A DNA stretch of 64,000 nucleotides from a virus (IMGVR_UViG_3300017593_002054), one strand, 5' to 3'; positions 2,183 through 46,042 are shown, numbered from the stretch's first letter. A program made the numbers and translations. The notes: generated by a model from the sequence alone, not told the origin.

Positions 2183-2204
2183 TTGTATCACACAGGTTTA
2201 AATA
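2183..2204 (+). promoter_or_regulatory. TGTATCAC-TATA promoter motif copy 1
   Basis: TTGTATCACACAGGTTTAAATA; ATG at 2226 is 21 nt downstream. Confidence 0.8.
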
Positions 2205-2225
2205 TGAGAATTAAGATTAAAGAAT

Positions 2226-2630
2226 ATGGAGTTACCCGAATTGAATACAGGAGAGTGTGAAGAAGTAGAGTTGGCTATTAAAGATATTGCAGATATTTGT
2301 TCTGAGCTTGGAGGAATATTTGATGTGGAAGAGCTTGCTGATGGTGCATCTGCCTTTTGCAATCTACGGGACAAAATGAATTTAAACTTTAAGTATGAGA
2401 TAAAACCACATGAGCCCTGTAAGTCTAAATTAGAAATCGAAGCGGGAAGCTATCGTGATAAACCAGAGTTCCAAATATTGATTGGAGAACCCACCATTTA
2501 CTATGATGATGACGACAAAAGGATGGTGGTAGAATCTAGAGAAATACATGCATCTCTTAGCAAATATGGCAGACTTAACATTATTGATAGCGCACTGGAT
2601 AATTATTATAGAAGACAATCACAATACTAA
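2226..2630 (+). CDS. Hypothetical acidic protein
   Basis: 134-aa ORF directly behind motif promoter. Confidence 0.7.
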   Translation: MELPELNTGECEEVELAIKDIADICSELGGIFDVEELADGASAFCNLRDKMNLNFKYEIKPHEPCKSKLEIEAGSYRDKPEFQILIGEPTIYYDDDDKRMVVESREIHASLSKYGRLNIIDSALDNYYRRQSQY

Positions 2631-2719
2631 TTGCTATATAAATTGGTTCTCTATCCTTCTTTGGCTTCTGGTTGCTATAAAAGGTGAAACCATTATATAT
2701 TACTTTTCGTTTATTTTTT

Positions 2720-3682
2720 ATGGAAAGATGGCTGTTGCCACTGATTGCTGTCATGCTGATACCTGTTGCGAGCGCAGGGGGAGATGGAGGGGGAACTGTA
2801 GAAGGTTTTGCTGAGATAACAGGCGAACCTTACTCAGGCGTTGTAGGCGTGCCAATAAACTTTACGTCAGTCATAACAGGCGGTGTTGCACCATACACAT
2901 GGAACTGGTCATTCGGTGACGGAGGATATGGCAATACACAGAATGTGAGTCATAACTACACGGCGCCAAGCGCATATACTGTAACGCTAAATGTCACAGA
3001 TGCTACGGGCAATTACTCAATAGATAGAATAATATGCAATGTGTATGACATATCAAATAATCCACCGGTTGTCGATTTTTCATGGAGCCCGCTATATCCT
3101 GTTGCTGGTCAACTTGTTAAATTCACTGACTTATCTCATGATTATGATGGTAACATTGTATCATGGAACTGGGATTTTGGAAACGGAAAACATGATAGTT
3201 TCAGGAATCCAACTACAAGGTATAACGAGGCTGGCATATATGTTGTGAAGCTTACAATAACAGATAATGACGGCGCATCATCGAGCATTACAAATATGGT
3301 AACAGTATATGATAAAGAACAGCCTGAAGTCAACTACACGCTGATTGTATATGTAAGCAATACACATGATAACCCTATAGCAAATGCAAAGGTATCAATA
3401 TCAAATGAAACAGGAGTTACACACCAAGGTTACACAAATGAAAACGGTAGCATAAAATTTTATGATATATCAGGGTACACCGTTATAACGGCAGAGAAAA
3501 AGGGATATACGGCTCACTCAACAGAGTTATACATTGATAAAGATACATCTGTTGTAATAACACTTGAAGGGAAGGCAGCACCGCAATGGTGGATTATAGT
3601 GCCGATAATGCTGGTTGCAGTTATCGGAGGTTACATATATAAGAAAAAGGCAATAATTGTATCACACAGGTTTAAATATTAA
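2720..3682 (+). CDS. PKD-domain surface protein (2 PKD + carboxypeptidase-regulatory-like domain + TM)
   Basis: Signal peptide MERWLLPLIAVMLIPVASA (start chosen at 2720); WNWSFGDG and WNWDFGNG PKD motifs; C-terminal TM + KKK. Confidence 0.85.
   Translation: MERWLLPLIAVMLIPVASAGGDGGGTVEGFAEITGEPYSGVVGVPINFTSVITGGVAPYTWNWSFGDGGYGNTQNVSHNYTAPSAYTVTLNVTDATGNYSIDRIICNVYDISNNPPVVDFSWSPLYPVAGQLVKFTDLSHDYDGNIVSWNWDFGNGKHDSFRNPTTRYNEAGIYVVKLTITDNDGASSSITNMVTVYDKEQPEVNYTLIVYVSNTHDNPIANAKVSISNETGVTHQGYTNENGSIKFYDISGYTVITAEKKGYTAHSTELYIDKDTSVVITLEGKAAPQWWIIVPIMLVAVIGGYIYKKKAIIVSHRFKY
3657..3678 (+). promoter_or_regulatory. TGTATCAC-TATA promoter motif copy 2 (inside 3' end of upstream CDS)
   Basis: TTGTATCACACAGGTTTAAATA, identical to copy 1; ATG at 3699. 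Confidence 0.8.
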
Positions 3683-3698
3683 TATCAGTTTTATCAGC

Positions 3699-4211
3699 AT
3701 GGTAGAACATATTGATAAACAGAGTGCAGATAAAATATTCCGGATTTTGGATAAAAGATTTGGAAAGGATAGATGGAGCGCTGGTGTTTATATACCCTAC
3801 TGGCACAAAAACGATGATGGCAATATTGTAATAAAAGTGGATATCGGCGGAAAGAAAGTAGAAAGTATGCCCGAAGCTGACTTTTATCAGGAATATTTTA
3901 GCATACATGAGACAAGAAAGCTTGAGATTTCTCCTGATGGAAATATTGTAAAAGATATGGCGGAATTAAAAGTTGAAGACTACCCAAAGCCAGCATCTAA
4001 AGTAAAATGTCGTATAGATACTATATTCGGTTTAGAATGTGAAGTTGATGATAAATACTTCTATGACGATGCGCACCGTTTAGATTTTGATGGAGAAGTT
4101 GATATTGACCCTGATTTTATCGGAAAGTTGAATGTTGATATCGAAGCGTACTTAAAAGAGGGATATTGTGAAGTAATGCCGGGTAACACACTACGGTGTT
4201 ATAAATCATAA
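3699..4211 (+). CDS. Hypothetical protein with C-terminal 4-Cys beta domain
   Basis: ORF after motif; VKCR..GLECEV ... YCEV..GNTLRC pattern shared with 30845, 32713, 33925. Confidence 0.65.
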   Translation: MVEHIDKQSADKIFRILDKRFGKDRWSAGVYIPYWHKNDDGNIVIKVDIGGKKVESMPEADFYQEYFSIHETRKLEISPDGNIVKDMAELKVEDYPKPASKVKCRIDTIFGLECEVDDKYFYDDAHRLDFDGEVDIDPDFIGKLNVDIEAYLKEGYCEVMPGNTLRCYKS

Positions 4212-5285
4212 CTTCTTAACTATTATTGCTACAATAATTACTACAATTATCCACTGCCACACTCTGAGTATCCAGAATTTCTGCATATACCAGTGTTCTG
4301 ATGGATTGGGCATCATATTTCTTATGTTTACAATCTGAGAGTATGTGGCGCTCATGCCGTCATTGTCAGTGACTTTCAGTGTTATTCTGTGTAATCCTGT
4401 TTCGTTATAGACATATTCTGCAACAACACCCATGTCATCATACATCCCGTCATCATCAAAGTCCCACTGGTAACTCACAACCTGTCCATCTGGATCATAT
4501 GACTTGGAAGCATTGACGGTAACATCGTTATACCATGCAGTATATGTGAATAGCGCAACAGGGGATTTACCAATCGCAATGTTGATGTTAAGAGAATGGC
4601 ATCGTGAGGGGTGCATTGCGCCACCGCTTCCTCCTCCCCCTGTCGTGTTTATTGCAATTATTATGGGTATGTGAAATGTCCCGGAATATAAACTCACCTT
4701 TGTTCCTTTAGGATGATGAACTGCAATACTGCCAAAATCACCGTGTACCAATCCTGAGAATGATGTATCATTTTTGCTGTTATACTTTATGTATTCATCC
4801 TCTATTTTAACAACTCCGGATATGGGAAATGATGATACATCATAGCACTTCATGGAAGCATCATCCGGCAGCAAATCCTCCGAAAGCTGGGTTTCTATGA
4901 CTGTCGGATAGTACACAACTGCTTTCATCTCTGCGGTGGTGAACGCCTGCACCTGCACTTCCTGTGATGGATTTGGATTATTAACATGGCTGGCAACCTG
5001 TATCCAGTCAGATGACAGGTCTGGTCGTAAGTATAAGTCCATATACCACCCCGAACCGTCAATGAGCCAGGGGGAATAGTCATCTCCCACCACTTTCAGG
5101 TAGATGTTGCCTGTGATGTTGATTTTGAAATCGCTTGTGGTCTCAACCACTCCGCTCAGGTCTCCCATTTTGCAGTAAATGTTGTCACTGGTATACTTCT
5201 TTTCAAACCACCATGCATTGGCAGACGGCAGAATGAATAATGCCAGTATGATTAGAATTAGCCACTTCTTACTCATCTCAATCAC
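4206..5285 (-). CDS. Secreted PKD-domain protein with C-terminal TM
   Basis: Signal peptide; SKSYDPDGQVVSYQWDFDDDG PKD motif; TM + KKL. Confidence 0.8.
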   Translation of the reverse strand: MIEMSKKWLILIILALFILPSANAWWFEKKYTSDNIYCKMGDLSGVVETTSDFKINITGNIYLKVVGDDYSPWLIDGSGWYMDLYLRPDLSSDWIQVASHVNNPNPSQEVQVQAFTTAEMKAVVYYPTVIETQLSEDLLPDDASMKCYDVSSFPISGVVKIEDEYIKYNSKNDTSFSGLVHGDFGSIAVHHPKGTKVSLYSGTFHIPIIIAINTTGGGGSGGAMHPSRCHSLNINIAIGKSPVALFTYTAWYNDVTVNASKSYDPDGQVVSYQWDFDDDGMYDDMGVVAEYVYNETGLHRITLKVTDNDGMSATYSQIVNIRNMMPNPSEHWYMQKFWILRVWQWIIVVIIVAIIVKKL

Positions 5286-5518: not shown

Positions 5519-6532
5519 TTACGATGGTGATGTCACAGTGAATGTGAATGACTGGGAGTAATTGCCAACCGGTGTAGCAGCAGGAATGTCTATCTCATGT
5601 TTCACCCATGATATTACCTGAGATGATTCTCCATGAGTTACCGTCATCTCGCTCGGATTCTGACCTGTGCCTGCCGATGACCAGCCACCGACAGATGCAG
5701 GTGTTGCTGCTTCGCCTTCAAAAACTTCCAAGTTGGTTAATGGTATGGTATTGCTTCCATTTACCAGATTTGCACCATTCCATGTTACTGTTACGCCGGC
5801 ATTAGCAGTTCCATCATTTGTCGCTTTCAAATAATTTTTTGAGGGGACATCTGTATCCCCTGAGCTTGCTGACCAGTTACCCCAGTAGTAATCTGTCGTA
5901 TTCTGGCTGCCGTCTGATGCATAATATGCCTGCAATACATCAACATCGGCATAGTTGTATACAGTAACCGTATCTGTATCAGTCGCCGTACTGCCTGCCG
6001 AATCCTTTATCTCTGCCTGCCATGTGTATACATTTGATGTGGCAGCGCCATTCGCCGGGTCATCTCCATTATCAAACGTATGCTTGAATTTAAATGTCAG
6101 ATAACCATTGTCAGCCGTTCCATTATCATATCCGTGTATTGAATTTTCCTGAAATCCCGGGTCTGATGAATTGCTACGGTCTGAGGAAGATATCTGATGA
6201 CTCATCCATGCAGTTCCATCTTCCAGCGTTCTGCCCTCAGTTATGCTCACATTAATCCAAGTCATATCATCCTCACCGTTTGCATCGTATACAACAACAG
6301 TTACCTCTATGTAGTCATCACCGTCATCATTTAGCTCGGATGTGGGTGAACCTCCTGTGGTGTGATAATTTGTTTCAGTCCCCTGATTTGGATAACTTTG
6401 AATGCTGATAGAAATAACCTGTGGCGCAGTATTTGTAACATTACCGCCACCAGTTAGCGCCATTACCGAAGGCAAAGCTGGAGATATTACAATGATTGCT
6501 ATAAGTATGGCTATAAGCGCATTACTCTTCAT
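5519..6532 (-). CDS. Secreted protein, WxL/TasA-pilin-like C-terminal domain; paralog of 7457-8728
   Basis: Signal peptide, no C-terminal TM; WGNWSA..GDT.V..KATN.G block and GNYSQSFTFTVT terminus shared with 7457-8728. Confidence 0.55.
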   Translation of the reverse strand: MKSNALIAILIAIIVISPALPSVMALTGGGNVTNTAPQVISISIQSYPNQGTETNYHTTGGSPTSELNDDGDDYIEVTVVVYDANGEDDMTWINVSITEGRTLEDGTAWMSHQISSSDRSNSSDPGFQENSIHGYDNGTADNGYLTFKFKHTFDNGDDPANGAATSNVYTWQAEIKDSAGSTATDTDTVTVYNYADVDVLQAYYASDGSQNTTDYYWGNWSASSGDTDVPSKNYLKATNDGTANAGVTVTWNGANLVNGSNTIPLTNLEVFEGEAATPASVGGWSSAGTGQNPSEMTVTHGESSQVISWVKHEIDIPAATPVGNYSQSFTFTVTSPS

Positions 6533-6538: not shown

Positions 6539-7444
6539 TCAAATACGCCTTTTGTTTATAAATGTATGTGATACGGCAATTGCAATTGCAATCAGTATTA
6601 CAGAAAATCCGGGTGTACTGTTTCCCTCTATGTGCATTTTCACGGTGTATGATGATTGAGCATTATCATCATCCCATACTGTGAGAGTGACATTGTAATC
6701 CCCTGATTTTTTATATTCATGGACTGGATTTTGCTCACTGCTCGTTATTCCATCACCGAAGTCCCATGACCATGAGATTATGGTGCCATCCATGTCAACC
6801 GATTTGTCATAAAACTGTATGGATTCCCCGGCATCTGCAATGTTGCTTTTCACAACAAACACGGCATCTGGTGGCTTGTTGTTTCTGACAGATATTATTT
6901 CAGTTTTGTTGCTGCTGGCATTATCATCATCCCATACTGTGAGAGTAATGTTGTAATTGCCGGGTTCTATGAATGCATGAGTGAAGTATTTATCATATGA
7001 TGTGACTCCATCACCAAGTTGCCATCGCCATCGTATGATAATGCCATCTGGGTCGTATGATTTATCAGTGAATATAATCGGGTCGAATGGCTTGGTATAG
7101 TCGTCATTCCATGTGAAATGCACCACAGGGGGCGTGTTGTCTACCTCTATTGTTATATTGTACTGGTATACTGCCGACCGGTTATCTATAACTGTCAGAA
7201 TGACGGTGTAATTTCCGTTGTCAGAGTAGCGGTGATATGGTGATGGTTCAGATGAAAAGTTACCATCGCCAAAGTCCCACAGGTAGGATACCGGCACTAT
7301 GGATGCATTGATTGAGAAGTGGATGCTTGTTGTTGTTGTTGGATTTTCGGGAATGTATGTAAAAGATATGGCGCAGGCGGATGGAATTAACATGGCTGAT
7401 ATCAATGTTAGCATGACTATTGACTTCACAGTAATATATCGCAA
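6539..7444 (-). CDS. Triple PKD protein with PGF-CTERM-like sorting signal
   Basis: Three W.(F/L)GDG PKD repeats; ends STPGF + hydrophobic helix + KRR, the archaeosortase A signal pattern. Confidence 0.8.
   Translation of the reverse strand: MRYITVKSIVMLTLISAMLIPSACAISFTYIPENPTTTTSIHFSINASIVPVSYLWDFGDGNFSSEPSPYHRYSDNGNYTVILTVIDNRSAVYQYNITIEVDNTPPVVHFTWNDDYTKPFDPIIFTDKSYDPDGIIIRWRWQLGDGVTSYDKYFTHAFIEPGNYNITLTVWDDDNASSNKTEIISVRNNKPPDAVFVVKSNIADAGESIQFYDKSVDMDGTIISWSWDFGDGITSSEQNPVHEYKKSGDYNVTLTVWDDDNAQSSYTVKMHIEGNSTPGFSVILIAIAIAVSHTFINKRRI
6555..6576 (-). promoter_or_regulatory. TGTATCAC-TATA motif copy 3, embedded in the upstream CDS
   Basis: CCGTATCACATACATTTATAAA on minus strand; ATG at 6532 is 22 nt downstream. 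Confidence 0.75.
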
Positions 7445-13034: not shown

Positions 13035-14393
13035 ATGAGTTTGGAAATGCTCCATTTTTGAGGTCATACTGTTAACCTCAATGGGTGACTCACGGCACCC
13101 TCTATCCCGTCTGCGCTCCATTTCTGAAATGCTTTCGGGATTGCTTTTCTTATTATGTTGTATCCTGCATTCACATCGGCGTTCACTATCAGTCCTTTTG
13201 CCGTTCTGAATAGCCCTCTGGATATTCTCTTTCCCATGTAAGGTTCTCTATGTTCTATTGGTTCATTGTCAAAAAATGAGCATTTTGATGTGTGTGCTTC
13301 ATCTTGGATAATGATATCTATGCCTTCCTCTTCTACTTTGTATTGGATTTTCTCTATGAGTTTGTATAATGGTATGCCTACAAATGTCTGATTGTTTCTT
13401 CTGCCCATATTTACCCTCTGTTTCCAGTCTTTGTTGTATCCTATGACCAATGTTCCAATATCATGCTCCACGCACCATTTTGCTATAACCCTGCTTACTT
13501 TGTGGAAGAAGTCGTTCAGCTTGCGTTCCCGCTTCACCGACAGTTTCTTTGCTTTTTTTCCTGTTCTTACTTTTTGTTTTGCATAGATGCTTTGTAATCT
13601 TGCCATCTCTTTGTTGAAATATTGGTTGATGCTCTTTGCTACCCCACCCTTAACAACAATCGGCTTCTCTCCGATGTTGTTTACCATGGTTATGAGGTTG
13701 CGAACTCCAATATCAATTCCCGCAATCCTATCCTTATTCCTCTTCGGCAGGTTTATCTTTTTCTCATATACTATTTCAAGCAGATATCCCACTCCTTTCG
13801 GGATGATTCTTACCTCCCTCAAACTTATTTTCTTGCCTTTACCTCCTTTACTTTCATCAATTCTTCCCAGTCTTGTTTTCACCTCCAGTCCTACCATCTT
13901 CGGTAGGATTAACCATCCATTTCTCAACTTTGCCTGCTGATTCGTGAATACGAGCATAAACTCGCCATCCTTTCTTTTGTAATGTGGCATTCTTGGTTGC
14001 TCCTTGAACTTATCAGGATGAGCCTTCCATTCTTTCATTGCCCTAAAAAATGCCTTCCAGTTCCTATCCAGAATTTTTAATGTCTGTTGTGCAGTCTGTG
14101 CCGGCAGTTCCTTGTAGTTCTCAGATGTTTTGAGTACGCCAGCCAATTTATTGTATCTTAACCACTTGCCCGATAGAAATAACTCCTGACGGATAATATA
14201 GTTTGCCTCATTGTAGAGATTCTTGGAGAGATGGCACAGCCTGCCTATTTTATCATTGGGTTTCAACCATATCCGTTCCGTTCGTTTCACCACCTGCTCG
14301 GCTTCCACAATCATAAACATGAATAAGTATATAAGGGTATAGGGGAGGGAAAGAATGCTATTTAAACCCTCCGATTGAAGGATTTCTGAACTG
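13035..14393 (-). mobile_element. IS200/IS605 family, tnpB-only (IS1341-like) element
   Basis: Left end CAGTTCAGAAATCCTTCAATCGGAGGGTTT shared with the copy at 36276, both preceded by TTAT; right end approximate. Confidence 0.8.
13064..14320 (-). CDS. tnpB: TnpB RNA-guided endonuclease
   Basis: N-terminal HTH (LCHLSKNLYNEANY), RuvC-I IAGIDIGVRN, RuvC-II QDEAHTSKCS, RuvC-III NADVNAGYNI. Confidence 0.95.
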   Translation of the reverse strand: MFMIVEAEQVVKRTERIWLKPNDKIGRLCHLSKNLYNEANYIIRQELFLSGKWLRYNKLAGVLKTSENYKELPAQTAQQTLKILDRNWKAFFRAMKEWKAHPDKFKEQPRMPHYKRKDGEFMLVFTNQQAKLRNGWLILPKMVGLEVKTRLGRIDESKGGKGKKISLREVRIIPKGVGYLLEIVYEKKINLPKRNKDRIAGIDIGVRNLITMVNNIGEKPIVVKGGVAKSINQYFNKEMARLQSIYAKQKVRTGKKAKKLSVKRERKLNDFFHKVSRVIAKWCVEHDIGTLVIGYNKDWKQRVNMGRRNNQTFVGIPLYKLIEKIQYKVEEEGIDIIIQDEAHTSKCSFFDNEPIEHREPYMGKRISRGLFRTAKGLIVNADVNAGYNIIRKAIPKAFQKWSADGIEGAVSHPLRLTV

Positions 14394-16461: not shown

Positions 16462-16761
16462 ATGAAATGCCCTACTTGTGGTAGAGAAGTAAGGACTACT
16501 ATCGGAAAAAGATGCCGATCTTGCTTATCGGAAATAGAATACTTCTATATGACAAAATACAGTGGAAGAATACATATTTCAATAAAAACAGCATTGAAAG
16601 ACTATAGTTGTTCATGCTGTGGTAATATAATACGAAAAGGCGAAAAATATGAGCATTCCAAAAGATATACTTCCAGATACAATTCTAAAACAAATCCATA
16701 TGAAACCATAAGATTGTGTATGAATTGTGTAAATGCGTTGCAGGAGGTAAAGATAAAATGA
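16462..16761 (+). CDS. Zinc-finger protein
   Basis: CPTC..CRSC and CSCC..C..C pairs. Confidence 0.6.
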   Translation: MKCPTCGREVRTTIGKRCRSCLSEIEYFYMTKYSGRIHISIKTALKDYSCSCCGNIIRKGEKYEHSKRYTSRYNSKTNPYETIRLCMNCVNALQEVKIK

Positions 16762-17223
16762 AGGATATAATAATTAATGGAGAAACAGTCGGGGCTGTTT
16801 ATATATATAAGGAAAAAGGTAAAAATAAAATTATGTTCTTACCAAAAAGCAAAGAGGATAAAGCAATTACATTCAGAAGCACAACAGGGCTACTCAATTA
16901 TCTTCGCAAACTTGGTGTATCCCATGATGACGTAATAGCAACTTGTTTGTATGTTGGGGCTAAATTGTTACAATTGAAAAAGGATAAAATGAGAGCAGAA
17001 ATCCAAGAATTTGCTGAAGCGATGGAAAAGGAAATGCAAAGACATGACCCTGAGAAAGGAGATAGTTGGAAATCAATGCCTATTAAGGATTTGGAAGAGA
17101 TATTGGAAGGTGTAATAGAAGATTACCGATATGCTGGTGATTACTGGGAGGAAATGGAAGAATTAATTGATGTTGCAAACGTTGCCATGATGTTATGGCA
17201 TCGTTATAAGCAGGAGGTAAATC

Positions 17224-19293
17224 ATGAATCCAGATAGAAACCTACAAACCCTTGAGGAAGAATGGTATCGTGTGCTGTTTGACCATTTCAAAGCCGAGAT
17301 AGAGGATGCTGCACTGCGTGGCAATAAAAGCGTTACATTGAGCTGGCAGACCCTTGCAGGCTATGATATAAACCCGGACCTTGCTGACTTCACACTGCAA
17401 AAGCCCTACCTCTCATTGTTTGCAGCAGAAGAAGCGTTGAAGCGTATAGATGTTGCTGCTGACCCGAACCCTCTAAAATATGTCCGGCTTGTTGACCTTC
17501 CGGAGCATGCCAAGAGAAGAATATCGGACATACGGGCTGCAAGCCTCGGCAAGCTTATTTCAGTTGACGGCATAGTGAGAAAAATAACCGAAGTCAGACC
17601 CAAAGTAACAGATGCAAAGTTCCAGTGTTTGAAATGTGGTGCCGTGATAAGCGTTGCCCAGCAATCATCCGAGGAACTGAAAGAGCCCGCATACTGTTAT
17701 GAAGACCAGGGCGGATGCGGAAGGGGGACAAAATTCAAACTGCTTGACGAAGAAAGCAACTACATAGATACGCAAAAAATATTGTTGCAGGAAAATCCTG
17801 AAGGGCTGAGAGGAGAGCCTCAGAACCTCACCATATATGCAGATGATGACCTTGCAGGGCTTGTAATGCCCGGCGACAGGGTGACAGTTGTGGGTATTCT
17901 TCACGGCATGACGAGGTATGCAGGAAAGAAAAAGCTCACCACGCTGAGAAAAGTCCTTGACGCTGTTTCATTTGTCCACAAGGAATATGCATTTGAGGAA
18001 ATAGAAGTCAGCCCCGAAGAGGAGAAGATGATCAAGGAAGCATCCAGCAAACCCGACATATATGATTTGTTCGTGCAGTCCATTGCCCCGACAATATATG
18101 GTATGGACATAGAGAAACATGCATTGCTGCTGCAACTGTTCGGCGGTGTGCCCAAAGAGATGCCTGACGGCACAAGGATAAGGGGGGATATCCACATACT
18201 GCTTGTCGGGGATCCCAGCACGGCTAAAAGCCAGTTGCTTAAAAGTATAGCCAACATTGCGCCGAGAAGTATGTTCACATCCGGCAAATCCAGCAGCGCA
18301 GCAGGGTTGACCGCCTCTGCCGTCAGAAGCGATGATTTCGGGGAGGGTAAGTGGACACTTGAGGCTGGTGCCCTCGTGCTTGCGGATATGGGCACTGCAA
18401 TCATTGATGAGATAGATAAGATGCGCCCGCAGGATAGAGATGCGCTTCACCCGGCGATGGAACAGCAGGAGATTTCGATAGCAAAAGCAGGGATAAACGC
18501 AACGCTTAAAACAAGATGTGCAGTTCTGGCTGCTGCCAACCCCAGTTTGGGCAGATTTGACATATTCAAAGACATAGTGGAACAGATAAACCTGCCTTCC
18601 ACGCTGTTATCACGTTTTGATTTGATATTTCCGATTACGGACAGACCGAATGTTGAGAGGGACAGCAGGCTGGCAAGCCACATACTGAAGGTTCACAGGA
18701 TAGGCGAGACAAGGGGCACAAATCTGGACAGCGACATGATAGAGGCAACTGACGAAATCACTCCACTGTTCGACAGGGACTTCATAAGGAAGTATATATC
18801 TTTCGCAAAAACTCACATAAAACCCGTTTTGACGCAGGAGGCAGAGGATGCAATAAAGGACTTCTATCTTCAGTTGAGGGCAGCATCAAATTATGACACG
18901 GGCATTGCCATTGCTCCACGTCAGATTGAGGCGATGGTAAGGCTGGCTGAAGCTTCGGCAAGGGTGCGCCTGTCATCTCTTGTGACCAGAGAGGATGCTG
19001 AGAGGGCGATAAATCTGATGAAATATTACATAAAGATGGTGGCGATGGAGGATAACTACATGGATATAGACAAGATTGAGACAGGGATAGCGCATAAGGG
19101 AAGGGGCAGATTGCAGGCATTGGAGGAAGCGATAAAGGCATTGGAGGAAGAATACGGTTATGCAAGCATGGACAAACTTCTCATATGGGCGAGAGAGCAT
19201 GGGTATGAGGAATACCTTGAACAGGACTTGGCGCACATGAAGCAGATGGGAAAACTGTTTGAGCCAAAGAGTGGGAATTATAAGAGGACATAG
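17224..19293 (+). CDS. mcm: MCM replicative helicase
   Basis: Zn finger CLKC..C..GC, Walker A GDPSTAKSQ, IDEIDKM, AAANP, SRFD arginine finger, C-terminal wHTH. Confidence 0.97.
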   Translation: MNPDRNLQTLEEEWYRVLFDHFKAEIEDAALRGNKSVTLSWQTLAGYDINPDLADFTLQKPYLSLFAAEEALKRIDVAADPNPLKYVRLVDLPEHAKRRISDIRAASLGKLISVDGIVRKITEVRPKVTDAKFQCLKCGAVISVAQQSSEELKEPAYCYEDQGGCGRGTKFKLLDEESNYIDTQKILLQENPEGLRGEPQNLTIYADDDLAGLVMPGDRVTVVGILHGMTRYAGKKKLTTLRKVLDAVSFVHKEYAFEEIEVSPEEEKMIKEASSKPDIYDLFVQSIAPTIYGMDIEKHALLLQLFGGVPKEMPDGTRIRGDIHILLVGDPSTAKSQLLKSIANIAPRSMFTSGKSSSAAGLTASAVRSDDFGEGKWTLEAGALVLADMGTAIIDEIDKMRPQDRDALHPAMEQQEISIAKAGINATLKTRCAVLAAANPSLGRFDIFKDIVEQINLPSTLLSRFDLIFPITDRPNVERDSRLASHILKVHRIGETRGTNLDSDMIEATDEITPLFDRDFIRKYISFAKTHIKPVLTQEAEDAIKDFYLQLRAASNYDTGIAIAPRQIEAMVRLAEASARVRLSSLVTREDAERAINLMKYYIKMVAMEDNYMDIDKIETGIAHKGRGRLQALEEAIKALEEEYGYASMDKLLIWAREHGYEEYLEQDLAHMKQMGKLFEPKSGNYKRT

Positions 19294-19385: not shown

Positions 19386-19724
19386 ATGAAAGATATAACT
19401 CTCTCAAAATTGTTTGGAGACTGTCCCAATGTTAAAATATTAGAATGTTTTGCAGATAATTACAAAGAGGATTTGTCAATAGAGGATATAGTATACATGA
19501 GTGATGTGCCAAGAACTACCGTCTATAGAAAAATCAGAAGATTGTTAGAAGATGGAATAATCAAAAAAACAAACCATTATGGAAAAACGCAACTGTATGC
19601 ACTTAATATGGAAAATGAAATACCTAGGGTGCTCGTATATCTGGAAACAATACTTGCACAAAGGGAATTAGAAAAAACGATGATGAAAGAAGGTGCAGCA
19701 GTCAATAGAGAAGACGTTTTGTAG
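19386..19724 (+). CDS. Winged-helix transcription regulator
   Basis: LSIEDIVYMSDVPRTTVYRKIRRLLEDGII..GKTQLY. Confidence 0.85.
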   Translation: MKDITLSKLFGDCPNVKILECFADNYKEDLSIEDIVYMSDVPRTTVYRKIRRLLEDGIIKKTNHYGKTQLYALNMENEIPRVLVYLETILAQRELEKTMMKEGAAVNREDVL

Positions 19725-19923: not shown

Positions 19924-20571
19924 ATGAACCGAACAACCACAATATTCGTAATAGCAATATTGGCTGGTGCTGCCGGGGCTGGCATAGTATGGGGATACTA
20001 TGAACTTCCCGGTGGAGCACTCGACCAGGCAGAACAACAGGCGTATAGCCAGGGATACAACGTTGGTACATCATCGGCAACACGATATGTGCCTCCGGCG
20101 AACATTGACTTCAGTATATCTCCGACAACTTTGAACTACACTGCTGCTGTAAACGCAAGTGACGATGTTGCAAGTGCGACATACGAAAATGCAACTATAA
20201 CCATAGAGAACAAAGAGGACACAGGCAGTGCAACAGTGAGAATAACACTGAAAGTAGCTAACGAAGACGATGGATTACCTGATGCCCTCGAAAAGGATGA
20301 GTTCCAGGTATACATACACAGCACAGAGGGCGACACATGGCTCTTTGGCAGCAGCGAGTCTGACGGAGAATACCACAGTGGTGGCTATCAGTTCACCATA
20401 CCTGCCAACACGGTAAAGACATTGACACTTGCAACCATGATGTCTGCGTGCAACGATGTGTTTGAGAACGGCAAGACATATGGCATAACAGTCTACCTGT
20501 ATCAGGTGGGCGCAGGCGTCAATGGAGCAGGAACGGTGATAGACTCTGAGAAGCTGACACTGACAACCTAA
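19924..20571 (+). CDS. Membrane-anchored Ig-like protein, candidate abundant structural protein
   Basis: N-terminal TM, beta-rich body, standalone gene followed by strong terminator. Confidence 0.55.
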   Translation: MNRTTTIFVIAILAGAAGAGIVWGYYELPGGALDQAEQQAYSQGYNVGTSSATRYVPPANIDFSISPTTLNYTAAVNASDDVASATYENATITIENKEDTGSATVRITLKVANEDDGLPDALEKDEFQVYIHSTEGDTWLFGSSESDGEYHSGGYQFTIPANTVKTLTLATMMSACNDVFENGKTYGITVYLYQVGAGVNGAGTVIDSEKLTLTT

Positions 20572-20582: not shown

Positions 20583-20618
20583 GAGGGAGTGGTACCAGCC
20601 ACTCTCTTCCCCTTTTTT
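20583..20618 (+). terminator. Hairpin + poly-T terminator
   Basis: GAGGGAGTGG/CCACTCTCTTC stem then TTTTTT, running into motif copy 4. Confidence 0.7.
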
Positions 20619-20638
20619 GTATCACACACATTTATAAA
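20617..20638 (+). promoter_or_regulatory. TGTATCAC-TATA motif copy 4
   Basis: TTGTATCACACACATTTATAAA; ATG at 20660. Confidence 0.85.
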
Positions 20639-23856: not shown

Positions 23857-24229
23857 ATACACCATTGATGATGCCATAAAAGTGGTTAATAGGATGAAGC
23901 ATTCAAAAATGAAGGCAGGTATTGTGGGCTCTATAATTAAATCTGGTTTTTCAGAACATGATATTGACATAACAGTTGTATGCGGTGTTTTACCTAAAGA
24001 TTTGATAGAGGATGAACTGTTTGATTACATATCTAAAGGTATTAGTGAATGCCAAACCAAGATAGAGCGAATTTTTAATGCCAAATTATATGAAACAGGT
24101 ACCGAACAGGGCTTTCCACAATACTTATTTGGGTATGTAAAAGTAGATGACAAGGTAATTCCAGTTGACTTCATCCCGATATTTGAGGGAGAGGAAGAGG
24201 AGGAAGAGGAATTTTTTAACTCGCCCTGA
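23850..24229 (+). CDS. Pol-beta-superfamily nucleotidyltransferase-like protein
   Basis: IVGSIIKSGFSEHDIDI (hGS..DhD) and distal PVDF; start chosen at 23850. Confidence 0.65.
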
Positions 24230-24243: not shown

Positions 24244-24265
24244 ATGTATCACACACATTTATAAA
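24244..24265 (+). promoter_or_regulatory. TGTATCAC-TATA motif copy 5
   Basis: ATGTATCACACACATTTATAAA; TTG at 24284 / ATG at 24293. Confidence 0.8.
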
Positions 24266-27443: not shown

Positions 27444-27465
27444 TTTATATATGCAGGTGATACAA
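27444..27465 (-). promoter_or_regulatory. TGTATCAC-TATA motif copy 6 (variant)
   Basis: TTGTATCACCTGCATATATAAA; ATG at 27425. Confidence 0.65.
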
Positions 27466-27517
27466 TTAGTAATTATTATGAAATAGTAACCCTTATATAC
27501 CTCCTTTGCATTACAAT

Positions 27518-27670
27518 ATGGGTGATAAAATAGTAAAGAAGGTGACTATAAGCATTCCTGAAGCAATGCTGGAAGATGTGAATAAAGAGATAGAGCGAAA
27601 GAAGTTCTCATCGCTGTCTGAGTTCATCAGGCACACGATAAGGAGATACTTTGAAGAGGAGGAAAAATGA
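27518..27670 (+). CDS. Ribbon-helix-helix (CopG-like) regulator (not in ORF track)
   Basis: MGDKIVKKVTISIPEAMLEDVNKEIERKKFSSLSEFIRHTIRRYF; stop overlaps next ATG (ATGA). Confidence 0.85.
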   Translation: MGDKIVKKVTISIPEAMLEDVNKEIERKKFSSLSEFIRHTIRRYFEEEEK

Positions 27671-39887: not shown

Positions 39888-40031
39888 AATGATTGAGGAG
39901 AGAATACCACGGGCGGGGGCGCCTGACCATGAAGTAGATAGCAGTTGGGATACCATTGATTTTATACAGGCGGTTATGCACATAAGATTGAGAGAAGGAA
40001 AGAGAATATTTGAAAGTTGGATAAGGTGAGG

Positions 40032-40706
40032 AATATGCTAAATAAACAACACGGAAATATGTATCCCTGGATAACTCACACTTGGAATCCTATCAGAGGT
40101 AGATGTCCCCATGACTGCATCTACTGTTACATGAAATCAATGCGATGGGACATCGGGGAGCTACGGCTCGCAGAAAAGGAGCTGCATACCAATCTCGGCA
40201 AAGGTAACACCATTTTTGTCGGCAGTTCAACCGATATGTGGGCAGATGAAGTGCCAAACGAGTGGATACTGAAAGTCCTGCAACATTGTTCAGAATATCC
40301 AGATAACACATATCTTTTCCAGAGTAAAAACCCTCATAGGTTTGCAATATACTTTGATGATTTGCCCCAAAACACTATTCTGGGAACTACAATAGAAACA
40401 AATAAGGAGGATATAATAAAAAAAGTATCAAAAGCACCGTCCCCTGCGAATAGATATATGCACATGCTAAATGATTTTCCAAGAAAGATGGTATCAATTG
40501 AACCTATTATGGATTTTGATTTGGACATTATGATACGGTGGATTGAAGATATTGAGCCAGAATTTGTATCAATTGGGGCAGACAGCAAAAATCACAACCT
40601 TCCAGAACCCCCAGCATGGAAGGTAGAGCAACTCATAAAAAGCCTAAAGGAATTTACAGAAGTAAAAATAAAGGATAACCTGAGTAGGATATTGGAGGTA
40701 AAATGA
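40032..40706 (+). CDS. Phage Gp37/Gp68-like (DUF5131) radical-SAM-like protein
   Basis: TWNPIRGRCPHDCIYCY (Cx3Cx2C), IFVGSSTDM, VSIEPIM. Confidence 0.8.
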   Translation, partial: NMLNKQHGNMYPWITHTWNPIRGRCPHDCIYCYMKSMRWDIGELRLAEKELHTNLGKGNTIFVGSSTDMWADEVPNEWILKVLQHCSEYPDNTYLFQSKNPHRFAIYFDDLPQNTILGTTIETNKEDIIKKVSKAPSPANRYMHMLNDFPRKMVSIEPIMDFDLDIMIRWIEDIEPEFVSIGADSKNHNLPEPPAWKVEQLIKSLKEFTEVKIKDNLSRILEVK

Positions 40707-43186: not shown

Positions 43187-43208
43187 TTGTATCACATAAG
43201 TTTTTTAA
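43187..43208 (+). promoter_or_regulatory. TGTATCAC-TATA motif copy 13 (variant)
   Basis: TTGTATCACATAAGTTTTTTAA; ATG at 43230. Confidence 0.7.
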
Positions 43209-43229
43209 CTGCTTCACGTTTTACATTCA

Positions 43230-43862
43230 ATGAACCGTTCAGAAATCTCCTCAGTTCTTGGTATATCCGGGATTGAGCGTGACCACCTTATTGATGCCCT
43301 CAAAAGGCAGGGTGTCGACTGGCAGGCTATTGATTGGAGAACGGTGGGGGAGGATATCAAGGACTACAGCAATAAATATGAAGCAATCTGGGATAAGTTA
43401 CAAAATGAGTATGGGGTGTCTTATCCTGCGGAGTGGAGATATAAGGATTACCCGAAGTATAAGCAACAGGAATATGAGTTCAATGCTGAAACGCTGAAAG
43501 AATATTTGAAGGAGAGCGAGGATGTCAGCTATTACAATCAGGTGATGAATGCATTATGTCTTGGAACCGAGCCAGTCCCGCAGGAAATAGATGAAGCCAT
43601 AGGATACACCGGCAGGGAGCGGAAGGCATTTCTCGAAGTGTTGTGCAGGGGGTATGGAATGCAGTATGAAAGCACAGGATGGGAGAAAGTGGATAGGGCG
43701 GTGGACAATTACAGGAGAGGAATAGAACGGTTTGGAGTAGACTCATACATAAGGTGTGGGGAAAAGGAAGGCTGGTATGCGGTGGCAGAGTGCCTCCATG
43801 ATACAAAGAAGGCTACTCTGAGCATTGACAACATGGTAAAGTGTTATGGCAGAAGTGCATAG
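43230..43862 (+). CDS. Hypothetical protein whose C-terminal ~55 aa is paralogous to 44451-44633
   Basis: NYRRGIERFGVDSYIRCGEKEGWYAVAECLHDTKK. Confidence 0.75.
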   Translation: MNRSEISSVLGISGIERDHLIDALKRQGVDWQAIDWRTVGEDIKDYSNKYEAIWDKLQNEYGVSYPAEWRYKDYPKYKQQEYEFNAETLKEYLKESEDVSYYNQVMNALCLGTEPVPQEIDEAIGYTGRERKAFLEVLCRGYGMQYESTGWEKVDRAVDNYRRGIERFGVDSYIRCGEKEGWYAVAECLHDTKKATLSIDNMVKCYGRSA

Positions 43863-43883
43863 TGTATCACATACCTTTATAAA
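43862..43883 (+). promoter_or_regulatory. TGTATCAC-TATA motif copy 14
   Basis: GTGTATCACATACCTTTATAAA overlapping upstream stop; GTG at 43904. Confidence 0.85.
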
Positions 43884-43903
43884 CATTTGGTGAATTAATA
43901 TTT

Positions 43904-44368
43904 GTGAATAGGAAGCCATCTAAAAAAACTGAGACAATACATATAAGATTGCCAAAGAACGGGGATGGTATGGTAAACAAGGAGTATCTATGCAAGGTTG
44001 CAGAGGAACTCAGTAAGGAAGAAAATGAGGATATAAACATATCTGAAGTTGTGCGCCGTGCGATTGGCATAATAATACCGGCTATGGACAAAAACTTAAA
44101 CTTACATCAGATTGCAAACATCATTGTTGCCGATGACGATATTGCCAGAGAAATGAAGAATATAAAACTCTCTGACATACTTGACGATATGGATAGAAAG
44201 GGCATAAGGGGGGATATATCGTTGCTGGACGTATACCGGATAGCACTGAGTAATGGTTTGAGATATGCATTTGAAAACTATCCGTTCAACAGATTACTGG
44301 TCGAGATATACAAAAAGTCGCTTAGCGATGATATTGAAGAACGCATGGAAAAACCCATTGTAACGTGA
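43904..44368 (+). CDS. RHH-like DNA-binding protein
   Basis: TIHIRLP..YLCKVAE..INISEVVRRAI. Confidence 0.6.
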   Translation: MNRKPSKKTETIHIRLPKNGDGMVNKEYLCKVAEELSKEENEDINISEVVRRAIGIIIPAMDKNLNLHQIANIIVADDDIAREMKNIKLSDILDDMDRKGIRGDISLLDVYRIALSNGLRYAFENYPFNRLLVEIYKKSLSDDIEERMEKPIVT

Positions 44369-44422
44369 TGTATCACATAGATTTATAAAGAATGATAAAA
44401 GTGTATCACATACATTTATAAA
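44368..44422 (+). promoter_or_regulatory. Tandem TGTATCAC-TATA motifs, copies 15 and 16
   Basis: 44368-44389 and 44401-44422, 33 nt apart. Confidence 0.85.
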
Positions 44423-44450
44423 TAACCATTTGTTTTATATTCGGATTAAA

Positions 44451-44633
44451 ATGAAAAGCAAGGAAACAGCAATAAGGAATTATGAGGCAGGCATCAAACG
44501 CTTCGGAGTGGACAACTACGCCGTCTGCGGAGACAAAGAAGGCTGGTATGCGGTGGCAGAGTGCCTCCATGAAGCCAAGAAAGCTTCAATCTCCGTAGAG
44601 GGCATGGTTTCAAGGTACAGAGACGCTGCATAA
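44451..44633 (+). CDS. 60-aa helical protein with double promoter
   Basis: MKSKETAIRNYEAGIKRFGVDNYAVCGDKEGWYAVAECLHEAKK. Confidence 0.75.
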   Translation: MKSKETAIRNYEAGIKRFGVDNYAVCGDKEGWYAVAECLHEAKKASISVEGMVSRYRDAA

Positions 44634-44721
44634 GCGCTCTGTCCTCATGTCCTCCATGAAGCGTAGCTCAAAGTAGCCCCAACGCCTCCCTCATCTGAAA
44701 AGGGGCATCTTCCCCCACGGT

Positions 44722-44762
44722 GAGGGAAACTATTAAATAGTTTCCCTCGATTATTTTTTTGA
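44722..44762 (+). terminator. Perfect 12-bp hairpin + poly-T
   Basis: GAGGGAAACTAT-TAA-ATAGTTTCCCTC then T-run. Confidence 0.75.
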
Positions 44763-44846
44763 TGTTGATGAATTTGAGCAGTGAGGAAGCCGAACTCATA
44801 AAACTTATAAGAAGCAATAAGTTGATAAAAAAGGGGGTGATGCGAT

Positions 44847-45182
44847 ATGCCAACTCGGCTAAAGGAAATTTTTGATGGCACTGATATAGACAAACTCGAT
44901 CAGGGTGTCGTGCTGAAGGCAGTATTGCCTCATATAAAGGAGATACCAAAAGAGGATGTCGACGAACTGATGAATCACTTACCTCCAGATGGAAAACTTA
45001 TAGTGATGAAAAAGCGTTGTGATGTCGGAGATAAATTTGCGTGCATGGCATACGATGTGGTAATTAATGGTGATGTGAGTGCGCCTGCGGGGTCGCCCAA
45101 GCATCTTGGTCTAAAGGGACTGTGGTATAACGAGAAGAACGAGACTGCAAAGATGATGCTTGAGAAAGTGGGAGAGTTGTAG
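44847..45182 (+). CDS. Hypothetical protein
   Basis: 111-aa ORF, GGGGTGA RBS. Confidence 0.6.
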   Translation: MPTRLKEIFDGTDIDKLDQGVVLKAVLPHIKEIPKEDVDELMNHLPPDGKLIVMKKRCDVGDKFACMAYDVVINGDVSAPAGSPKHLGLKGLWYNEKNETAKMMLEKVGEL

Positions 45183-45183
45183 T

Positions 45184-45205
45184 TTGTATCACACAGGTTT
45201 ATAAA
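45184..45205 (+). promoter_or_regulatory. TGTATCAC-TATA motif copy 17
   Basis: TTGTATCACACAGGTTTATAAA; ATG at 45227. Confidence 0.85.
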
Positions 45206-45226
45206 GATAATAAGCGATAATATTAC

Positions 45227-45853
45227 ATGAATTTGCTTAGCGATGCCGAGTATCTGAAGGTAATGGAGTGGCTCTCAACTTTCTCTGCAGGAGGTCTGGA
45301 AGAGTTTTATGACGATATGCTGAAGCCGGATATACTGCCACGAGCCACCCGTGAGCAGAGGGAGAGATTATACAAGAGATTTATGATGTTCTACCGGGTG
45401 AAAACTAAGGCTATGGGAAGAAAAATGAGGAGCGATATAACGGATATGTCAAATTGGATCAATGTTGGCAGACCAACTTATGTATCTGAGCTTGAAGAAA
45501 AAGCTGTTAAAGTATACCTAAACAAGGCAGATACCATAAAAGAGCTTGATGATTATTACCAGTGGGTAGTTGAACATGTATTTCCTCGTGCAACACCGAA
45601 ACAAAAAAAGAGAATAATGACTGCATATGATTTAAAGTTGGTGAGGCTTGAAAGAGAAAGGGAAATGGCAGAGGCGAGCAGAAAAGCGATGGAAATGGTG
45701 AAAAAAACACCAAGACCAGAGAGGGGGCAGGAAGTTACAATGGATGGCACCAAAGGAGTTGTTACCGACAGAAGTGTTACAACACCTGAAGTAGAAGTCA
45801 GATGGGAGGATGGCACATCTTCATGGATACATCCAAAATATTTAAAGTGGTAG
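45227..45853 (+). CDS. Hypothetical protein with duplicated helical unit and C-terminal SH3-like barrel
   Basis: LEEFYDDM..PRATREQ / LDDYYQW..PRATPKQ repeat; RGQEVTMDG.KGVV..VEVRWEDG. Confidence 0.55.
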   Translation: MNLLSDAEYLKVMEWLSTFSAGGLEEFYDDMLKPDILPRATREQRERLYKRFMMFYRVKTKAMGRKMRSDITDMSNWINVGRPTYVSELEEKAVKVYLNKADTIKELDDYYQWVVEHVFPRATPKQKKRIMTAYDLKLVRLEREREMAEASRKAMEMVKKTPRPERGQEVTMDGTKGVVTDRSVTTPEVEVRWEDGTSSWIHPKYLKW

Positions 45854-46020
45854 TTTAATCCCAGAAACCCCGGAATGTAAAAAATCGCCCATCATTTTCT
45901 GTGGATGTCTCATCTAAATTTCTGTGTGATACGATACAGGACAGGTAGATAACCTCTCTGGTTGGAAGCCAGTAAAAAGTAGCCCAGAGAGGTCTACCTC
46001 AATCTTAAAACAGCCGAGAG

Positions 46021-46042
46021 TTTATAAATCTGTGTGATACAA
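46021..46042 (-). promoter_or_regulatory. TGTATCAC-TATA motif copy 18 (no ORF downstream)
   Basis: TTGTATCACACAGATTTATAAA on minus strand just after stop at 46045. Confidence 0.75.

Follow-up and report, generated by a model that had tools for sequence, protein, structure and literature searches.

An 18-copy promoter motif in a Thermoplasmatota-associated mobile element and its probable link to a chromosomal helix-turn-helix operon

A mobile element represented by the viral record IMGVR_UViG_3300017593_002054 carries a short sequence, repeated 18 times, which has the layout of a promoter and precedes genes of its accessory modules. The analysis covered a stretch of 64,000 nucleotides, referred to here as the window. 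It encodes Cdc6, a full MCM, two short MCM-type ATPases, an RFC-like ATPase, an ATP-dependent ligase and a DNA methylase, together with a tyrosine integrase (59723-60727) beside a tRNA-Trp gene, RusA, TnpB copies and many surface proteins of the PKD, Flg_new and dockerin types. No capsid, packaging or conjugation genes were recognised in the window.

The repeated motif consists of an upstream element, TGTATCAC, and a TATA box, TTTATAAA, separated by five nucleotides (nt). A search of both strands of the window for this pattern, allowing up to two mismatches, found 18 sites, compared with 0.13 expected and a maximum of 2 in 100 shuffles. All of the sites listed in the initial annotation were recovered; its start positions were one base lower than those in Table 1 because a leading T had been counted in. 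TGTATCACA is the most over-represented 9-mer of the window. Without a TATA box, TGTATCAC occurs in the window as only four words, all intragenic and at a frequency expected by chance.

Alignment of the copies extends the consensus to TGTATCACAYA-NN-TTTATAAA, a single signal 21 bases in length. Positions 1-9, 11, 14-21 and 34 are invariant or nearly so, while the bases 5' of position 1 are random. The TATA box is perfect in 14 of the 18 copies. Position 34 is T in every copy and position 33 is T in 15 of them, which places these bases 12-13 nt past the TATA box. Each copy is oriented in the same direction as the gene that it heads, and the distance from the end of the TATA box to the start codon is 18-22 nt in 13 of the 16 protein genes, bearing out the leaderless spacing that had been claimed for most copies; the remaining three distances are 27, 28 and 38 nt, the longest being accompanied by an AGGAG Shine-Dalgarno sequence. 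Six copies adjoin the stop codon of the previous gene with a gap of 0-2 nt (stops at 31243, 32437, 33531, 43862, 44368 and 45182), as had also been noted. The annotated sharing of sequence downstream of the motif is likewise present: GTCAATTGAGATT follows both copies 4 and 12, which have 39 nt in common, and GAATGAGAG follows copies 9 and 10, to which GAATGGGAG at copy 11 can be added. Promoter blocks of up to 39 nt are thus common to unrelated genes (copies 4 and 12), implying that promoters have been copied around.

An archaeal TATA box is centred approximately 24-27 nt before the transcript start, with a W/T-rich spot near -10. The copies share an 8-bp A/T-rich TATA box, a characteristic distance to the start codon and co-orientation with the gene, and this geometry puts the transcript start at or just before the start codon, as in promoters of leaderless mRNAs. 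The core of each copy would comprise the TATA box, one or two T residues at about -10/-11, and a start codon some 20 nt past the TATA box. Each copy is therefore very probably a complete archaeal promoter giving a leaderless or nearly leaderless transcript, its start site being predicted from this layout. Shine-Dalgarno sequences precede 4 of the 16 motif-led genes and 9 of 23 operon-internal genes, a contrast that is too weak to be of use given the crude gene starts. Other genes of the element (357-2147 and 19924-20571) have a TATA box at an equal distance without TGTATCAC, and the winged-helix gene at 19386 has a canonical TFB-recognition element (BRE), GCGAAAG. The 11-bp element TGTATCACAYA is thus an addition to the basal promoter.

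The initial annotation had placed TGTATCAC where the BRE is expected. This holds for one part of it: the six bases 5' of the TATA box read C-A-Y-A-S-N, with A only at -5 and -3, and the 5-7 nt adjoining the TATA box do occupy the BRE position, but TGTAT lies farther upstream. Within the upstream element there is an inner dyad, TGT-N3-ACA, the three pairs of which are complementary in 18, 18 and 16 of the 18 copies. We suggest that TGTATCACAYA, which abuts and overlaps the BRE position, may be the operator of a sequence-specific DNA-binding protein, and the data as a whole make it likely that a dedicated factor reads the motif. Regulators that bind over the BRE and TATA box hinder TFB and TBP, as does TrmB at the TM promoter, while regulators that bind upstream can activate, as do TrmBL1, Ptr2 and TFB-RF1 (PMC4158304, PMC4706686). 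The right arm of the dyad occupies the BRE position, which makes repression somewhat likelier than activation; we therefore lean slightly towards a factor that would block TFB/TBP over one that would recruit them, the non-canonical BRE being compatible also with an activator that helps TFB.

The motif is strongly conserved. An exact-pattern scan of metagenome contigs gave 66 loci, many of them from Guaymas-type hydrothermal sediment projects and many encoding homologs of window proteins at 26-98% identity (loci and genomes are designated below by L and G numbers, respectively). A start codon opening an open reading frame (ORF) was found at a distance of 17-24 nt in 26 of 72 exact metagenome matches, compared with 1 of 28 matches in species genomes and viral contigs, and this single control match turned out to be genuine. 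The proteins of L080 are 37-57% identical to those encoded at 42-47.7 kb of the window, and this locus keeps the motif before the orthologs of the genes at 43904 and 44451 (the latter with a tandem pair at 32-nt spacing) and at the minus-strand promoter of copy 18, while L035 keeps it before the S8 protease gene. The tandem layout, with a spacing of 32-34 nt, is found in L080, L071 and L009. In ungapped comparisons of five orthologous promoter pairs, 88% of motif positions are identical, as against 27% for the 30 nt upstream, 45% for the spacer and 32% for the sequence beyond it, which indicates strong purifying selection on the 21-mer.

We note two further occurrences. In L050 and L082, metagenome contigs of 32% G+C, an exact copy in which position 34 is not T lies 21 nt before a Trp/Tyr-type tRNA synthetase gene; it may have arisen by chance or represent a distant use of this signal. 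L009 (G002:C188, 352-2509) is a mobile fragment in a Thermoplasmatota metagenome-assembled genome (MAG), where a tandem motif (32-nt spacing) precedes a gene for a 74-amino acid (aa) protein and then a D5_N/DUF5906/Pox_D5 primase-helicase gene, so that on other elements a motif-headed unit can run on into a replication gene.

In total, 16 protein transcription units (approximately 25 genes) and one probable small RNA lie under the motif, as listed in Table 1. Two clusters (31245-33552 and 43188-46041) account for 12 copies and stand before small single genes. The initial annotation held that the motif marks surface and effector genes, which describes the regulon only in part: six units open with secreted or membrane proteins, whereas about ten open with small soluble proteins that are often Cys-rich and unannotated. 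The surface-type leads among the units are the PKD/dockerin/Flg_new proteins, the S8 protease and hydrophobic small proteins. Searches of the motif-driven proteins against Pfam, PHROGs, PADLOC, PDB sequences and the Atlas gave only the S8 protease, PKD/Flg_new/dockerin, a hit resembling HExxH metalloproteases and Ig-like leads, and the small proteins had no PADLOC or Pfam match. Two small proteins (30845-31243 and 33925-34299), each encoded second or later in a motif-driven unit, appear by eye to be paralogous, with a common D-x-Y-N-P-(W/F) segment and a Cys-rich C-terminus. As had been stated, the motif is absent from the replication and recombination operons: there are no copies at up to two mismatches in 14.4-19.3, 37-41 and 47-64 kb, which correspond to the Cdc6/MCM block, the 37-41 kb block and the long minus-strand operons.

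Table 1. Motif copies, the predicted RNA, candidate DNA-binding proteins encoded in the window, and chromosomal operon loci. Distances are from the end of the TATA box to the start codon.
Feature	Coordinates	Strand	Context
Copy 1	2184..2204	+	TATA variant TTTAAATA; 21 nt before ATG 2226 (134 aa); PKD protein 2684-3682 downstream
Copy 2	3658..3678	+	20 nt before ATG 3699 (170-aa protein)
Copy 3	6555..6575	-	CGTATCAC; 22 nt before ATG 6532 (secreted, 337 aa, 5519-6532); conserved in L033
Copy 4	20618..20638	+	21 nt before ATG 20660; PKD/dockerin/Flg_new surface-protein operon 20660-24229; conserved in L068 and L092
Copy 5	24245..24265	+	27 nt before ATG 24293; Flg_new protein and 627-aa Ig-like protein, to 27192
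Copy 6	27444..27464	-	TATA variant ATATATAAA; 18 nt before ATG 27425 (78 aa, Cys-rich); back-to-back with the promoter of the RHH gene (27506-27670)
Copy 7	29453..29473	+	20 nt before ATG 29494; S8 subtilase and 132-aa protein, to 31243; ortholog kept in L035 (protease 53% identical)
Copy 8	31245..31265	+	22 nt before ATG 31288 (161 aa, HExxH metalloprotease-like); unit missing in L032
Copy 9	31846..31866	+	22 nt before ATG 31889 (182 aa, Cys-rich); unit missing in L032
Copy 10	32439..32459	+	38 nt before zinc-ribbon gene 32498-32662, AGGAG Shine-Dalgarno; unit missing in L032
Copy 11	32672..32692	+	20 nt before ATG 32713; 146-aa protein and protein with four transmembrane segments 33154-33531
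Copy 12	33532..33552	+	20 nt before ATG 33573; hydrophobic 115-aa protein and two more genes, to 35677
Copy 13	43188..43208	+	TATA variant TTTTTTAA; 21 nt before ATG 43230 (210 aa)
Copy 14	43863..43883	+	20 nt before GTG 43904 (154 aa, N-terminus RHH-like by eye, no Pfam hit); ortholog kept in L080
Copies 15 and 16	44369..44422 (starts 44369 and 44402)	+	Tandem pair, 33 nt apart, 5' of ATG 44451 (60 aa)
Copy 17	45185..45205	+	21 nt before ATG 45227 (208 aa); unit 45183-45942 missing in L071 and L087
Copy 18	46021..46041	-	No ORF; heads hairpin RNA; ortholog kept in L080, L071 and L087
Predicted small structured RNA	45885..46000	-	Starts about 22 nt past the copy-18 TATA box; 58-nt hairpin 45943-46000; T-run near 45885
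Winged-helix protein, 112 aa, HTH_IclR/TrmB-like	19386..19724	+	Own canonical BRE/TATA promoter, no motif; alternative candidate for the trans-acting factor
RHH_1 protein	27506..27670	+	Divergent from copy 6; alternative candidate for the trans-acting factor
AbrB/MazE-type DNA-binding domain protein	57938..58471	-	Alternative candidate for the trans-acting factor
Chromosomal HTH operon loci	L141 (G001:C267) 1986-2682; L139 (G020:C65) 1516-2222; L145, L147, L148, L150, L151		

Copy 18 probably drives a conserved hairpin RNA and not a protein. The hairpin has a fold z-score of -4.4 and is conserved in L071 (141-201) and L087; its 11-bp consensus stem has two compensatory pairs relative to the diverged L080 (4010-4074, minus strand), which also retains the loop segment GGCUUCCA. 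The RNA lies antisense to and downstream of the gene at 45227-45853, and has no match in Rfam.

Comparison with relatives shows that whole promoter-gene units are present in some and missing in others. In L035 the protease gene belongs to one Shine-Dalgarno-coupled operon, together with one other gene and a membrane protein gene, and this stretch has no internal motif units. L032 has one different gene at the corresponding place, where four extra genes are found in the window, three of which have a motif promoter of their own; past the swapped 1.8-kb segment, the first base of copy 11 is exactly where homology with L032 starts again. The unit that is missing in L071 and L087, comprising copy 17 and its gene, ends 8 nt from a degenerate inverted copy of the motif. 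Copy 14 and its gene are likewise missing in L071, where the breakpoint on the right side falls at the tandem pair. The initial annotation had raised the possibility that the repeats delimit gene cassettes, which the comparisons support in part. Three indels between relatives do start or end 0-10 nt from a motif copy, but there is no integron-like machinery and some breakpoints are intragenic, the opposite ends of the indels lying within genes or at gene ends and not at the motif. Moreover, the intergenic space consists almost wholly of the motif, so that any indel of whole genes would be expected to have its breakpoints nearby. Unlike an integron recombination site, the repeat lies at the 5' end of the gene, fused to a TATA box, and the integrase is 14 kb from the nearest cluster; as in phage morons, a gene with its own promoter is inserted between genes that are adjacent in relatives. 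The turnover thus appears moron-like and not integron-like, with accessory genes arriving with, or acquiring, the shared promoter-operator; homologous exchange at the repeat is possible. A separate difference between relatives concerns a truncated TnpB (OrfB_IS605) of about 950 bp at 36241-37074 of the window, which is missing in the close relative L052 (136-422), where a motif copy lies 33 nt from the homology breakpoint. A full TnpB is found at 13064-14320.

We then consider where the motif occurs outside the element. Among 185,579 species genomes, no fetched stretch contained more than one exact copy, and the motif is therefore not a common host promoter; candidate host genomes of 1-2 Mb have 0-2 matches each. 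Two single exact matches fell in Thermoplasmatota MAGs, one being the mobile fragment L009 and the other L013, in G001, which lies just past the genes for L7Ae, S28e, L24e and NDK. In 39 genomes of the order to which G001 and G002 belong, the motif has 13 matches at up to two mismatches and its reversed control has 3, while outside this order matches are at the control level and the core is mostly broken. Approximately 240 kb of G001 and G002 contain seven promoters with a perfect TATA box at leaderless distance, none of which has the upstream element; a BRE consensus for these genomes was abandoned, seven promoters being too few.

Within this order, the motif heads a chromosomal operon. In G001, G003, G005 and G020 it lies 21-23 nt before the gene for a hydrophobic protein of 47-59 aa, followed by the gene for a protein of approximately 142 aa, and G014 has the same operon behind a motif with a TATA variant. 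The motif is thus present at the head of the operon in all five genomes that have a complete 142-aa gene, and the initial description of it as element-specific does not hold in the strict sense. The 142-aa protein shows 50-66% identity between genomes, and its C-terminus, TIRxIASxFNRSKRIVH, is invariant. It has weak hits to the helix-turn-helix (HTH) families HTH_23, HTH_38 and SpoIIID, beyond which no match was found in Pfam, PDB or PADLOC, and HTH-type look-alikes in the Atlas, which are leads only. Its AlphaFold model is poor overall (pLDDT 56.5), with a C-terminus of three helices at pLDDT 67-86. The protein is confined to this order (6 of 197 genomes of its class) and has about six homologs in a large protein collection; no homolog was found in the window or in the related metagenome loci.

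The 142-aa gene has a promoter of its own, P2, which contains a perfect palindrome, TTTGTA-T-TACAAA, in G020, G014 and G001 and on the metagenome contigs L150 and L151. The arms are 4-7 bp long, and G001 has a compensatory form, CGTA-T-TACG. The centre of the P2 dyad lies 9 nt before the TATA box, as in the element copies, and the ATG is 21-23 nt past the TATA box. The dyad therefore overlaps the promoter of the regulator's own gene and is conserved with that gene. A dyad on the promoter of a DNA-binding protein is the signature of autoregulation by a dimer, which makes the 142-aa protein the best candidate for the factor; we put this identity forward tentatively, a little short of an even chance. 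The neighbourhoods of the operon are chromosomal yet variable between close versions (L7Ae/S28e/L24e/NDK, PurC, GlnA, S17e/riboflavin, thioredoxin), so that the HTH module could be mobile in its own right or be left over from an integrated element. Genomes of the same order have a third family of motif-headed genes: two short contigs, L142 (G007:C117, 1003-1294) and L143 (G002:C37, 1130-1416), encode homologous Cys-rich proteins of approximately 80 aa (43% identity) preceded by it.

The window itself encodes DNA-binding proteins (Table 1), and any of the winged-helix, RHH (ribbon-helix-helix), RHH-like and AbrB-type proteins could be the true binder or an additional one. The 112-aa winged-helix protein, the only TrmB-like protein in the window, falls below the TrmB gathering score. 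The RHH-like regulator candidate at 43904-44368 sits under copy 14 and is not supported by Pfam or PDB. A scan of about 70 ORFs turned up neither a TFB nor a TBP. A candidate TFB at 16716-17237 was rejected: the weak Pfam TFIIB match (E = 0.012) is spurious, the C-terminal 75-aa domain belonging to a large family of approximately 80-aa proteins (419 hits). The profile of this family matches PDB 2p06 (AF_0060), and we take the domain to be MazG-like, probably an NTP pyrophosphatase. A 159-aa protein with this C-terminus (16758-17237) is encoded just upstream of the MCM gene.

Over 16.5 kb the window matches an 85-kb metagenome scaffold at 99.93% identity; the scaffold continues for approximately 48 kb farther left, and the element exceeds 110 kb if the two are collinear. 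In the 4.5 kb to the left of the window (L128, 16533-21014) the minus-strand operon of small unannotated genes continues and there is no motif copy. No related records were found in plasmid, phage and IMG/VR collections. The MCM of the element is closest to Thermoplasmatota MCMs (52-58% identity), and the nearest look-alikes of its Ig-like surface protein are also in Thermoplasmatota, as a lead only. Integration at tRNA-Trp by the integrase was considered and dropped, as the window contains no att-like repeat of the tRNA. Other features include a RusA resolvase (62311-62715, minus strand); a DUF5131/radical-SAM-like protein (40017-40706, plus strand) with a 69%-identical DNA match in G038, a MAG of the HTH-operon order; and a surface protein (6539-7444) in which the PKD-repeat copy number differs at 6722-6916 from that in the 91%-identical L033.

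We favour, with moderate confidence, a reading in which a host-type promoter-operator has been multiplied on the element, tying its accessory genes to a chromosomal HTH regulator. The order that has the HTH protein would be the probable host clade of the element, and the perfect dyad at P2 would represent a classic autoregulation layout. The element would have placed copies of the same promoter-operator before 16 protein units and one small RNA, in accessory modules that encode surface proteins, a protease and many small proteins, so that roughly a quarter of the window might answer to one factor. The findings that support this reading are the motif, its grammar and conservation, its presence at the host operon and its rarity elsewhere, and on these grounds the accessory genes of the element are probably wired to the chromosomal regulator.

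Several observations weigh against this reading. No CRISPR-spacer link to a host was found, the short matches in G015 and G023 lying outside repeat arrays; the element MCM is only 54% identical to those of G001 and G002; and the HTH operon is present in only 5-6 of 39 MAGs, which are incomplete. Given its variable neighbourhood, the operon might be what is left of an integrated element (an immunity region) and not a host gene. The element motif has a dyad with 3-bp arms, not the perfect palindrome of P2, and the structural model of the HTH protein is poor overall. In addition, the element carries four other DNA-binding candidates, and the approximately 48 kb beyond the window could encode a factor of its own.

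Four other explanations were weighed against the multiplied host-type promoter-operator. The initial annotation proposed a private late promoter class, in which an activator encoded by the element (wHTH, RHH, AbrB-type or a TFB paralog) binds TGTATCAC upstream of a weak BRE. CAYASN is not a canonical purine-rich BRE, and TFB-RF1 and TrmBL1 do bind upstream of both BRE and TATA box (PMC4158304, PMC4706686); the motif is missing from the replication modules, several units encode secreted, membrane or protease proteins, and wHTH, RHH and AbrB-type proteins are available on the element. However, the occurrence of the same promoter-operator on Thermoplasmatota chromosomes means that the class is not private, the ORFs scanned include no TFB or TBP once the TFIIB-like hit is read as a MazG-like domain, and about 10 of 16 units encode small soluble proteins that are not virion-like. 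The motif in L009 heads a small gene followed by a D5-type primase-helicase, and with no capsid or packaging gene recognised the term late has no anchor. We regard this class as decidedly unlikely. Another alternative is an early or anti-defence sequence of the SIRV2 type: a strong promoter would act at entry on fast-evolving small genes, after which a repressor of the Aca kind encoded by the element would turn it off; the RHH-like protein 43904-44368, which is itself under the motif, is one possibility. Archaeal viruses have virus-specific consensus sequences around the BRE and TATA box of a strong promoter before small, unannotated single genes; this sequence invariably precedes their regulator gene as well, and inverted repeats that overlap the BRE occur in some of them (PMC11065993). 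The 12 copies in two clusters of small single genes, the gain and loss of units between close relatives, and the conservation in L080 of the RHH-like gene under copy 14 all fit this description, and for the biology of one part of the regulon it is a rival to be taken seriously. As an account of the whole it is unlikely: the motif also drives large surface-protein operons and a protease, PADLOC and Pfam are silent on the small proteins, the RHH character of 43904-44368 was read from the sequence alone with no Pfam or PDB match, and the chromosomal HTH operon with the motif and its perfect-dyad variant is left unexplained.

The motif might instead need no dedicated factor, TGTATCACAYA being an extended, strong core-promoter or BRE variant for the general TFB and TBP that was spread by duplication. 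This would suit the 14 of 18 perfect TATA boxes, the tandem copies before the 60-aa gene, which suggest selection for strength, and the blocks of up to 39 nt common to unrelated genes, which indicate copying. A general site should be common at highly expressed genes, but there are only 0-2 matches per candidate host genome of 1-2 Mb, and the upstream element is absent from all seven perfect-TATA leaderless promoters in approximately 240 kb of G001 and G002; furthermore, the dyad and the P2 palindrome with its compensatory change point to a dimeric, specific binder. This makes the general-factor explanation improbable. A repeat that is primarily recombinational, with integron-like or homology-driven exchange of cassettes and a secondary promoter role, is more improbable still. 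It would account for the exact resumption of L032 homology at copy 11, for a unit (45183-45942) that begins at copy 17 and ends close to a degenerate inverted copy, and for the L035 stretch from protease to membrane protein without internal promoter-gene units. However, the other indel ends fall inside or at the end of genes, breakpoints near the motif are expected where intergenic space is almost all motif, the integrase is far from the clusters, and the fixed TATA-to-start spacing and the T at -10 are explained by transcription only.

If the promoter-operator is indeed read by the chromosomal HTH protein, an immunity or eavesdropping switch can be imagined. As a dimer, the protein of this possibly stand-alone module would occupy the dyad that overlaps the BRE, both at its own promoters and at each of the 17 motif-driven units of incoming elements of this family; the host, or a domesticated relic of such an element, would thereby silence at once a quarter of an element of more than 100 kb; or else the element would tie its surface-remodelling genes and the small RNA to a host membrane signal, with the repeat serving as a portable 5' end for new accessory genes. 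This extension is speculative and rather unlikely as it stands. Transcription control in the Thermoplasmatota of marine sediments and in their mobile elements is almost unstudied, and the present analysis provides a cis-element of approximately 43 bp (operator to start codon) with a regulon of 16 protein units and one small RNA, together with a named candidate binder that is confined to one order and has a textbook autoregulatory palindrome. The motif and the candidate protein form a pair that is open to testing with one recombinant protein and a few oligonucleotides. Should the factor be encoded by the host, this would be a clear archaeal case of an element wired into a host switch, or of host silencing via a shared operator. 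The motif can also be used as a probe, both to retrieve fragments of this element family from metagenomes and to link the family to a host clade.

The arrangement resembles several known systems. A phage moron is an insertion between conserved genes, made up of a gene and its own promoter, and T4 has promoter-stem-loop modules. As in these, accessory genes with their own promoter lie between conserved neighbours, relatives differ by whole units, and the repeated promoter offers short homology for exchange; the difference is that all units here use one shared promoter-operator. Temperate viruses have sets of repressor operators, such as the F55 sites of SSV1 and the stoperators of mycobacteriophages, in which one DNA-binding protein addresses many short oriented sites across a mobile genome, often right past stop codons. 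Stoperators are not promoters, whereas each site here is fused to a TATA box at fixed spacing, and no gene for the putative binder lies in the portion of the element covered here.

The Thermococcales glycolytic motif (TGM; TATCAC-N5-GTGATA) is the operator of TrmBL1/Tgr in Thermococcales, and sites of the TrmB family work through where they lie relative to the BRE and TATA box (PMC4158304, PMC4706686). Its left half-site, TATCAC, recurs exactly in the element motif with 5 nt after it, and the element encodes a small TrmB/IclR-like winged-helix protein. However, the right half is the TATA box (TTTATA against GTGATA), the real dyad is TGT-N3-ACA or TTTGTA-T-TACAAA, and the candidate factor is not TrmB-like but of another HTH type. 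No full TGM palindrome was found in the window, where all matches need two mismatches. In view of the missing right half-site and the different register of the dyad, the identity of the half-site, although real, is probably a coincidence, and a link to TrmBL1 was set aside.

In halovirus HF2, promoters are carried by two classes of intergenic repeat, 58 bp (class I) and 29 bp (class II) long, as shown with a reporter (PMC8707807). They resemble the motif in being exclusively intergenic, in acting as promoters and in their conservation of sequence and position among related viruses. They differ in number (nine), in sequence and in length, and no shared host operon or candidate factor has been described for them; the element motif, in comparison, has a fixed spacing to the start codon and probably gives leaderless transcripts.

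A similar layout is found in Sulfolobales viruses (SIRV2 and others), where a virus-specific regulatory sequence precedes early and anti-defence gene clusters and is shut off by the Aca8 wHTH repressor (PMC11065993). The two share many copies per genome, a strong BRE/TATA promoter, genome-specific flanks and small, fast-turnover single genes; in both, a shared sequence surrounds a strong promoter before several single genes of one genome. In the Sulfolobales viruses the regulator gene is preceded by the same sequence, and in some of them an inverted repeat lies over the BRE, as the dyad does here. The clear case of a regulator under the motif is chromosomal here, the candidate on the element being the RHH-like 43904-44368, which Pfam and PDB do not support. 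The sequences differ, and in the Sulfolobales viruses the regulator is encoded by the virus, whereas here the candidate regulator and a copy of the operator are chromosomal and in Thermoplasmatota. The element motif also heads large surface-protein operons and probably drives a small RNA, and the likeness concerns sequence layout. Repeated genome-specific promoter or regulatory sequences in archaeal viruses are thus known already from SIRV2-type viruses and HF2. What is new is such a motif in an unusually large element associated with Thermoplasmatota, its presence also at a chromosomal operon that appears to be autoregulatory and supplies a candidate factor, and a structured RNA that it probably drives.

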